A stretch of 15,352 nucleotides of DNA from the IMG/VR virus record IMGVR_UViG_2558860274_000010, positions 1 to 15,352 of that record; one strand, 5' to 3'. The DNA comes from a virus (taxonomy: Duplodnaviria > Heunggongvirae > Uroviricota > Caudoviricetes). Shown here one piece after another: positions 8,182 to 10,639 of the stretch. Every line of letters starts with the position of its first letter. The first letter of the stretch is position 1. A program made the position numbers and the translations under genes. The notes beneath the pieces are model-generated. The model did no database searches. It saw nothing but the letters and a program-made list of their open reading frames with translations, and had not been told where the DNA came from.

Positions 8182-8189
8182 GGATATGT
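8182..8189. repeat. IS66-family target site duplication, left copy (GGATATGT)
   Basis: An 8-bp sequence immediately outside the left terminal inverted repeat, identical to the 8 bp at 10632-10639. Confidence 0.8.
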
Positions 8190-8260
8190 GTAAGCGTACA
8201 GCCTGAACCGTCTGGTCAGAATCTGACGAATTAGACAAAGTGGTGTCCACCAAATAAGTA

Positions 8261-8662
8261 GTGGGAACCAAAGTATCAGATATGCAGAAAAATGTGACTC
8301 CCGGCAGGCGAAAAGGCTGCCCTAATTATCCTCCCGAATTTAAACAGCAGCTCGTTGCTGCCTCCTGTGAACCCGGGATATCCATCTCAAAACTTGCTCT
8401 TGAAAATGGCATTAACGCCAATCTGTTGTTCAAATGGCGACAACAATGGCGCGAGGGAAAGCTGCTATTACCTTCTTCAGAGAGCCCCCAGCTACTTCCT
8501 GTGACTCTCGATGCAGCTGCCGAACAGCCAGAATCGCTCGCAGAGGACCCGGAAACCCTCAGTATCAGCTGTGAGGTAACGTTCCGGCACGGGACGCTCC
8601 GCTTCAATGGCAATGTCAGCGAAAAGCTCCTGACTCTGCTGATACAGGAACTGAAGCGATGA
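8261..8662 (+). CDS. IS66-family accessory protein TnpA (orfA)
   Basis: First ORF of the IS66 unit; its stop overlaps the orfB start (ATGA at 8659). The true start may be the internal ATG at 8282. Confidence 0.7.
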   Translation: MGTKVSDMQKNVTPGRRKGCPNYPPEFKQQLVAASCEPGISISKLALENGINANLLFKWRQQWREGKLLLPSSESPQLLPVTLDAAAEQPESLAEDPETLSISCEVTFRHGTLRFNGNVSEKLLTLLIQELKR

Positions 8663-9006
8663 TCCCGTTACCTTCCGGGACCAAAATTTGGCTGGTTGCC
8701 GGTATCACCGATATGAGAAATGGCTTCAACGGCCTGGCTGCGAAAGTACAAACGGCGCTGAAAGACGATCCCATGTCCGGCCATGTTTTCATTTTCCGGG
8801 GCCGCAGCGGCAGTCAGGTTAAACTGCTGTGGTCCACCGGTGACGGACTGTGCCTCCTGACCAAACGGCTGGAGCGTGGGCGCTTCGCCTGGCCGTCAGC
8901 CCGTGATGGCAAAGTGTTCCTTACGCAGGCGCAGCTGGCGATGCTGCTGGAAGGTATCGACTGGCGACAGCCTAAGCGGCTGCTGACCTCCCTGACCATG
9001 CTGTAA
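8659..9006 (+). CDS. IS66-family TnpB (orfB)
   Basis: 115-aa ORF in the conserved middle position, overlapping orfA and typical in size and composition for IS66 orfB. Confidence 0.75.
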
Positions 9007-9055
9007 ATCTCTTTATCCTGGTTGTCACAGAATAAGCCCGGTAAAATACGGGCTT

Positions 9056-10594
9056 ATGAACGACATCTCTTCTGACGACATCTTCCTGCTGAAACAGCGC
9101 CTGGCCGAACAGGAAGCGCTGATCCACGCCCTGCAGGAAAAGCTGAGCAACCGGGAGCGCGAAATAGACCATCTGCAGGCGCAGCTGGATAAACTCCGCC
9201 GGATGAACTTCGGCAGTCGTTCCGAAAAAGTCTCCCGCCGTATCGCACAAATGGAAGCCGATCTGAACCGGCTTCAGAAAGAGAGCGATACGCTGACTGG
9301 TAGGGTGTATGACCCGGCAGTACAGCGTCCGTTGCGTCAGACCCGCACCCGTAAGCCGTTCCCTGAATCACTACCCCGTGACGAAAAGCGACTGTTGCCT
9401 GCGGCGCCGTGCTGCCCGAACTGCGGCGGTTCACTGAGCTATCTGGGCGAGGATACCGCCGAACAGCTGGAGTTGATGCGTAGCGCCTTCCGGGTTATCC
9501 GGACGGTACGGGAAAAACATGCCTGTACTCAGTGCGATGCCATCGTGCAGGCACCTGCACCTTCGCGGCCCATCGAGCGGGGTATCGCCGGACCGGGGCT
9601 GCTGGCCCGCGTGCTGACCTCGAAGTATGCAGAGCACACCCCGCTGTATCGCCAGTCAGAAATATACGGCCGGCAAGGTGTGGAGCTGAGGCGTTCACTG
9701 CTGTCGGGCTGGGTGGATGCATGCTGCCGGCTGCTGTCTCCGCTGGAAGAGGCGCTTCATGGCTATGTCATGACTGACGGCAAACTCCATGCCGATGATA
9801 CCCCGGTCCAGGTACTGCTGCCGGGTAATAAGAAGACGAAGACCGGGCGGTTGTGGGCGTATGTTCGTGATGACCGCAATGCAGGGTCAGCGTTGGCACC
9901 TGCAGTGTGGTTCGCTTACAGCCCGGACAGAAAAGGCATCCATCCGCAGACTCATCTTGCCTGCTTCAGCGGTGTGCTGCAAGCGGATGCGTACGCCGGG
10001 TTCAACGAGCTGTATCGCAATGGTGGGATAACGGAAGCTGCCTGCTGGGCTCATGCCCGCCGAAAGATCCACGATGTGCACGTCCGCATCCCGTCAGCAC
10101 TGACGGAAGAAGCCCTGGAGCAGATCGGTCAGTTGTACGCCATAGAGGCGGATATAAGGGGAATGCCGGCAGAGCAGCGGCTTGCTGAACGTCAGCGAAA
10201 AACGAAACCGTTGTTGAAATCCCTGGAAAGCTGGTTGCGTGAAAAGATGAAGACCCTGTCGCGACACTCAGAGTTGGCGAAGGCGTTCGCGTACGCACTT
10301 AACCAGTGGCCGGCACTGACGTACTATGCGAACGATGGCTGGGTGGAAATCGACAACAACATCGCTGAAAATGCCCTGCGGGCGGTCAGTCTGGGTCGTA
10401 AAAACTTCCTGTTCTTCGGCTCTGATCATGGTGGTGAGCGGGGAGCGCTACTGTACAGCCTGATCGGGACGTGCAAACTGAATGACGTGGATCCAGAAAG
10501 CTACCTTCGCCATGTGCTTGGCGTCATAGCAGACTGGCCGGTCAACCGGGTCAGCGAACTGCTTCCGTGGCGCATAGCACTGCCAGCTGAATAA
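9056..10594 (+). CDS. IS66-family transposase TnpC (orfC)
   Basis: 512-aa ORF with an N-terminal heptad/leucine-rich coiled segment, a CxxC...CxxC zinc-finger-like motif (CPNCGG...CTQCD) and a DDE-type core. Ends 37 bp before the right inverted repeat. Confidence 0.8.
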
Positions 10595-10631
10595 CACATC
10601 CCCGTCAATACGGCCCTCGCTGTACGCTTAC

Positions 10632-10639
10632 GGATATGT
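10632..10639. repeat. IS66-family target site duplication, right copy (GGATATGT)
   Basis: Identical 8-mer immediately outside the right inverted repeat. Confidence 0.8.

Follow-up and report, generated by a model that had tools for sequence, protein, structure and literature searches.

Insertion sequences of the IS66 family typically carry a GTAAGCG motif at their terminal repeats, a trait for which Han (2001) and Gourbeyre (2010) are reportedly the sources. IS679 and IS66, whose transposition has been tested experimentally, each have three ORFs in which an overlapping tnpA–tnpB pair is followed by tnpC, together with ends of the GTAAGCG type and an 8-bp target duplication. Han et al. (2001) are said to have found that all three ORFs are required for transposition of IS679. 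For IS66 itself, the 8-bp duplication has been reported (PMC6778807). The closest described element to the one considered here is ISEc8 (L0013/L0014/L0015) of Escherichia coli O157:H7 EDL933. ISEc8 is naturally active, as it has interrupted stx2A in O157 strain 9000 (PMC6776261).

We analyzed a 15,352-nucleotide stretch of DNA (hereafter the window) that corresponds to positions 4253307–4268658 of CP007025.1 with 0 mismatches. CP007025 is the record of Escherichia albertii KF1 (PMC3907721). An initial annotation of the window, made from its letters alone, had described an intact IS66-family element flanked by an 8-bp target duplication. Our analysis indicates, with a probability of roughly 93%, that a full-length ISEc8 was inserted by transposition into the 117-bp spacer of a lambdoid lysis cassette now found in E. 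albertii KF1. An antisense ORF and the lysozyme gene border this spacer in the prophage cassette (holin, spacer, lysozyme, Rz), and ISEc8 is oriented like the late operon. The relevant features are as follows.

7366–7572, plus strand: class II holin gene, upstream of the insertion (Pfam Phage_holin_2_1 in the KF1 locus, L013; homologues annotated as holin in loci L001 and L002)
7828–8142, minus strand: antisense hypothetical ORF (WP_000138558.1, hypothetical protein)
8182–8189, no strand: left copy of the target-site duplication, GGATATGT, present as a single copy in E. coli empty sites
8190–10631, plus strand: ISEc8 (IS66 family), complete, 2442 bp, with 100.0% identity over positions 1–2442 to E. 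coli O157:H7 copies
8190–8211, plus strand: left terminal inverted repeat, with 13 perfect bases at 8190–8202 and 18/22 overall
8282–8662, plus strand: tnpA, HTH accessory protein, 126 aa from ATG (Pfam HTH_Tnp_1, 1.8e-12; NCBIfam IS66-like TnpA, 6.3e-28)
8659–9006, plus strand: tnpB (IS66 Orf2), 115 aa (Pfam TnpB_IS66, 1.2e-38; NCBIfam IS66_TnpB, 2.9e-35)
9056–10594, plus strand: tnpC, DDE transposase, 512 aa (Pfam DDE_Tnp_IS66, 2.1e-106; NCBIfam transpos_IS66, 1.2e-137)
10610–10631, minus strand: right terminal inverted repeat
10632–10639, no strand: right copy of the target-site duplication, GGATATGT
10710–11243, plus strand: phage lysozyme (endolysin) gene (Pfam Phage_lysozyme in L013; lysozyme or rrrQ in E. 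coli)
13784–15352, minus strand: tccP/espFU-like gene (196 aa, EspF family) and espJ (217 aa, 410 bits to EspJ_gen)

The proposed membership in the IS66 family was upheld, in that all three ORFs match IS66 profiles above the curated cut-offs. The NCBIfam models returned 97.7 bits for IS66-like TnpA (cut-off 74), 120 bits for IS66_TnpB (cut-off 50), and 459 bits for transpos_IS66 on tnpC (cut-off 180). The tnpC product carries LZ_Tnp_IS66 (PF13007), zf-IS66 (PF13005), DDE_Tnp_IS66 (PF03050), and DDE_Tnp_IS66_C (PF13817) domains, all above cut-offs, and the DDE_Tnp_IS66 match spans profile positions 1–283 of 284. A CWAHARR motif is also present in the translated TnpC. Likewise, the gene arrangement is that of the family, with an overlapping tnpA/tnpB pair (the stop of tnpA and the start of tnpB share the sequence ATGA at 8659–8662) upstream of a tnpC that encodes the full set of DDE modules. 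An alternative GTG start at 8261 extends tnpA to the 133-aa "L0013" form given previously, and the ORF sizes in the window equal those of ISEc8 L0013/L0014/L0015 (PMC2762410). All three genes lie uninterrupted on the plus strand; together with the complete domains and the presence of both ends, this makes the element intact, as first proposed, at the level of its sequence.

By ISfinder convention, elements that share more than 95% nucleotide identity are isoforms. Positions 8190–10631 are 100.0% identical over 2442 bp to numerous copies from E. coli O157:H7 for which RefSeq gives the label "IS66-like element ISEc8 family," and the matching segment of an Stx2-phage record (GenBank FJ188381.1) is annotated "insertion sequence:ISEC8." Because all 2442 bp are identical, the database labels name ISEc8, and the ORF sizes equal those of L0013/L0014/L0015, the element is by its sequence ISEc8 itself, beyond mere membership in the IS66 family. 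The KF1 copy shares its sequence, its ends, and its ORF lengths (133/126, 115, and 512 aa) with ISEc8 of E. coli O157:H7 EDL933 and differs solely in location and host. In contrast, IS679 and IS66 are other elements by sequence, and their transposition has been tested by experiment, whereas the KF1 copy is known from its sequence. Copies covering at least 80% of ISEc8 are found in 3375 of the 5426 complete E. coli genomes, where they reside on chromosomes and on plasmids of ~95 kb.

The boundaries of the element were similarly clear. Its 5′ end reads GTAAGCGTACAGC and its 3′ end is the exact reverse complement of that sequence, such that 13 of 13 positions pair before the repeat becomes imperfect, reaching 18 of 22. 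Thus, the 13 perfect bases that had been called as terminal repeats exist but are better described as part of a longer, imperfect repeat. Both ends begin with GTAAGCG, as in the IS66 family. The claimed 8-bp target duplication was found as identical copies of GGATATGT at 8182–8189 and 10632–10639. These are the only two occurrences of this octamer on either strand of the 15.3-kb window, each flanking ISEc8, and the repeat cannot be extended by even 1 base on either side. Hence careful alignment confirmed the terminal repeats as well as the direct repeats.

We reconstructed the empty site by joining positions 7590–8189 to positions 10640–11239, which is equivalent to deleting 8190–10639 and yields a 1200-bp sequence. 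The proposal that the pre-insertion target could be recovered by this deletion proved correct, as the product matches the unoccupied site in real E. coli genomes with 100% identity from end to end, including O157:H7 prophage DNA. The empty site is covered to at least 80% in 625 of the 5426 complete E. coli genomes, and 589 records have a best match of 99% identity or more. The unoccupied E. coli target contains a single GGATATGT, which is found on each side of the element in KF1, consistent with the 8-bp duplication of the IS66 family. Since the reconstructed site matches existing genomes at 100% over 1200 bp, the event is a real and clean simple insertion, as had been proposed. Exact searches for an empty-site 34-mer among GTDB representatives gave no match, and this collection is therefore silent on which species hold the empty site.

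These data also bear on whether the flanking repeats might be coincidental and the segment no discrete mobile insertion at all. We found nothing in favor of this explanation and regard its probability as negligible. Two positions fixed in advance would carry the same 8-mer by chance with p = 4^-8 (~1.5e-5), which counts the flanking octamers alone, and coincidence is ruled out by the presence of the exact empty site in hundreds of genomes and by boundaries identical, to single-base precision, to those of other ISEc8 copies.

Insertion by transposition would proceed by analogy with what is described for the family. TnpC, a DDE transposase, would bind the GTAAGCG... terminal repeats together with the accessory proteins TnpA and TnpB, and the ends of the element would then be joined to a target cut with an 8-bp stagger, the repair of which would generate the GGATATGT duplication. 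The KF1 copy is plausibly still mobile because it carries no lesion and identical copies have moved in nature. In reading the element as transposition-competent, the initial annotation nevertheless went further than an intact sequence allows.

The method of genome assembly is relevant to the apparent integrity of the copy. The KF1 assembly combined Ion Torrent, Illumina 2x250, and 454 8-kb mate-pair reads with in-silico gap filling (PMC3907721). Because a 2.4-kb multicopy repeat was assembled by this combination of short reads, mate pairs, and gap filling, the interior of the IS may be a consensus of several copies, in which copy-specific defects could be hidden. The copy might thus only seem intact, either because its interior is a consensus made by the assembler or GapFiller and the true copy is defective, or because the sequence is right and the element is inactive in its host. 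A consensus interior would fit both the assembly method and the 0 mismatches to widespread copies, given that other sampled copies differ by 1 to 5 bases. However, 100% identity is also seen in many E. coli copies assembled from long reads, which makes an exact copy nothing out of the ordinary. Furthermore, the authors of the genome report having verified the remaining gaps by PCR and sequencing (PMC3907721), and the left junction plus 139 nt of the IS interior are independently confirmed by a metagenome contig (L014, discussed below). We therefore consider it unlikely that the intactness of the copy is only apparent.

We also sampled eight further full-length ISEc8 copies from unrelated loci. 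Perfect 8-bp duplications of varied, unrelated sequence flank five of the eight, swapped reciprocal flanks were found for two, and the duplication has been lost in the remaining one. An 8-bp duplication is therefore the rule for ISEc8, as five of eight sampled copies have perfect ones, in line with the report for IS66 (PMC6778807). The two copies with swapped flanks (L022 and L023) lie ~50 kb apart in GCA_018966965.1 and are bordered by GACATCAG/CGAAAAAC and CGAAAAAC/GACATCAG, respectively. Such exchanged octamers are the hallmark of two ISEc8 copies having recombined homologously to produce an inversion. Comparison of seven duplications (GGATATGT, GATAAATC, GAACAACC, AGTGATTG, GCGTAATC, AGTAGCTC, and GGTAAAAG) revealed no convincing pattern from which a target consensus for ISEc8 could be derived.

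One of the duplications compared borders an ISEc8 copy at a site closely similar to that in KF1. E. coli OkiPb01684 (NZ_AP042519.1, locus L001, 9468–11909) carries its own ISEc8 in the homologous holin–lysozyme spacer, flanked by the 8-bp duplication GATAAATC and ending 4 nt ahead of the lysozyme ATG. Element, orientation, and intergenic spacer are shared by the two insertions, the lysis cassettes being homologous. However, the OkiPb01684 copy is located 67 bp further downstream, is flanked by GATAAATC rather than GGATATGT, and has 5 mismatches to the KF1 copy. The two insertions are independent events. That two such insertions have occurred in one short spacer in two species is the sole mildly unusual point of the locus.

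One could propose that the holin–endolysin spacer is a recurrent target of ISEc8 and that such insertions are selected for uncoupling holin from endolysin in cryptic prophages that carry effectors. If true, lysis would be disarmed in cryptic prophages that the host keeps for the type III effectors tccP and espJ. We view this proposal as highly doubtful. Alternatively, the paired spacer insertions could reflect a local structural target preference of ISEc8, or chance. Small hairpins near both insertion sites were noted and rejected as an over-interpretation.

The antisense ORF upstream of the element has its start codon 47 nt from the insertion point and gave no family match in a profile search, whereas the lysozyme gene on the other side starts 70 nt past the right target duplication and 78 nt past the IS end. 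A simple, crude scan for sigma-70-like promoters in positions 7300–11300 found no site, and a terminator scan of the same region found that terminator-like sites are no commoner than in shuffled sequence. These scans are weak evidence in either direction and carry no information on polarity.

Beyond the cassette, the DNA has the makeup of a prophage that has lost much of its original content. An integrase and an exonuclease gene lie to the left of the window in CP007025.1 (L013). The left part of the window itself encodes, in order, DicB, RusA, a Q-like DUF1133 protein, a DNA methyltransferase, and two tRNAs. These are followed by the left 0.6 kb of IS2 with a truncated esterase gene, then by the holin gene, the antisense ORF, ISEc8, and genes for lysozyme, Rz, and PerC, and finally by the 5′ part of the terminase small-subunit gene, tccP/espFU, and espJ, with the chromosomal gene zinT to the right of the window (L013). 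The left ~0.6 kb of IS2, which encodes IS2 TnpA and the initial 72 aa of IS2 TnpB, runs directly into a 5′-truncated SASA/DUF6645 (NanS-p-like) esterase gene within positions 5098–6919, and this junction creates a chimeric 469-aa ORF at 5510–6919. From 5721 onward the sequence is again homologous to E. coli prophages, with positions 5721–13380 being 99.4–99.7% identical to E. coli OkiPb01684. The window as a whole is covered to no more than 55% in any complete E. coli genome. The IS2–esterase fusion protein was found solely in KF1 and a single ENA metagenome contig.

A second rearrangement is evident toward the right end. The match of positions 13300–13737 is to the 5′ portion of the gene for the terminase small subunit; from ~13734 the window continues with DNA whose usual place is downstream of tccP, beyond the tail-fibre genes. 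The fusion point falls at ~13734–13738, and the ORF at 13462–13797 is a truncated fusion that spans this deletion joint. Because the 5′ part of the terminase gene joins DNA downstream of tccP, the whole morphogenesis module, from terminase to tail fibre, must be missing. The remnant still carries the effectors tccP and espJ at its end, beside chromosomal zinT. The surrounding DNA is thus a decayed lambdoid prophage remnant. Since the prophage has already decayed, as the IS2 fragment, the truncated esterase gene, and the terminase-to-tail-fibre deletion attest, the ISEc8 insertion is most likely selectively neutral.

Three other observations concern the left part of the window. A 122-aa prophage ORF on the minus strand (4518–4886) matches the PmrD family (PF11183, L013 gene table), and seems to encode a phage-borne connector protein of the PmrD type. 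Positions 3390–3639, which follow the methyltransferase gene, encode tRNA-Met(CAT) and tRNA-Arg(TCT), while homologous E. coli prophages have three annotated tRNAs (Ile, Arg, and Arg); the CAT tRNA is probably of the tRNA-Ile2 type. Lastly, a 243-aa ORF on the plus strand (63–794) runs opposite the called DUF1482 and dicB genes; it matched no family and is unlikely to be a real gene.

The identity of the element and its flanks to E. coli DNA raises the question of when and where the insertion took place. Zero divergence from widespread copies suggests, on sequence grounds, that the insertion is recent. The initial annotation went too far in calling the event dated, as this lack of divergence says "recent" and nothing finer, and the interior may in any case be an assembly consensus. 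Because flanks and IS alike are identical to E. coli DNA, the event may predate the arrival of the prophage in E. albertii. Accordingly, we considered a history in which the insertion is real and happened elsewhere: ISEc8 would have entered the spacer in a phage or prophage of another host, probably E. coli, and the cassette, interrupted by then, would have reached E. albertii by lysogeny or prophage recombination.

Several similarities speak for such an origin. Over 1200 bp, the flanks share 100% identity with prophage DNA of E. coli O157:H7, and the IS is 100% identical to E. coli copies, including those on plasmids of ~95 kb. In addition, the identity of positions 5721–13380 to OkiPb01684 far exceeds that of the E. 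coli and E. albertii core genomes, which is roughly 90%. Nevertheless, the IS is present at this exact position in 0 of the 5426 complete E. coli genomes, and the sole other carrier found, L014, shares the IS2–esterase fusion that is specific to KF1, which speaks for a KF1-like lineage and against a widespread donor. We regard an insertion in another host as less likely than not, although the data would fit an event in E. albertii, in E. coli, or in a free phage.

A query with the left junction retrieved one E. coli record with at least 80% coverage, which was that of OkiPb01684 and represents the separate insertion described above; the exact occupied left junction was absent from all 5426 complete E. 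coli genomes. Exact searches with a left-junction 36-mer gave no match in GTDB species representatives or in IMG/VR, and a right-junction 35-mer gave none in JGI metagenomes. When the left junction was compared with a collection of deposited phages, the IS half alone was matched, and no deposited phage carries the insertion. The left junction does recur in one ENA metagenome contig (L014), which extends 139 nt into the IS and also carries the KF1-specific IS2–esterase fusion. This match lends independent support to the junction and indicates that a KF1-like lineage exists elsewhere. Because the junction is absent from the searched collections and recurs in one ENA contig, it is usable as a lineage marker. 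The suggested use in strain typing is therefore reasonable, with the junction in 0 of 5426 complete E. coli genomes and the empty site in 625, and the sequence …CTCAAGGGATATGT|GTAAGCGTACAG… is a candidate PCR or k-mer marker for KF1-like strains.

No paper in the searchable literature names both ISEc8 and E. albertii. The element is an ordinary, structurally complete ISEc8 in a published genome, correctly described and already known as an element, and the gain is accordingly small: one ISEc8 copy in E. albertii KF1 is now correctly annotated. The locus adds one further case of the build-up of insertion sequences in a decaying, effector-bearing prophage. Moreover, the 100% identity of the IS and its flanks to O157:H7 DNA reflects a pool of mobile elements common to E. 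coli and E. albertii, which is already well appreciated.
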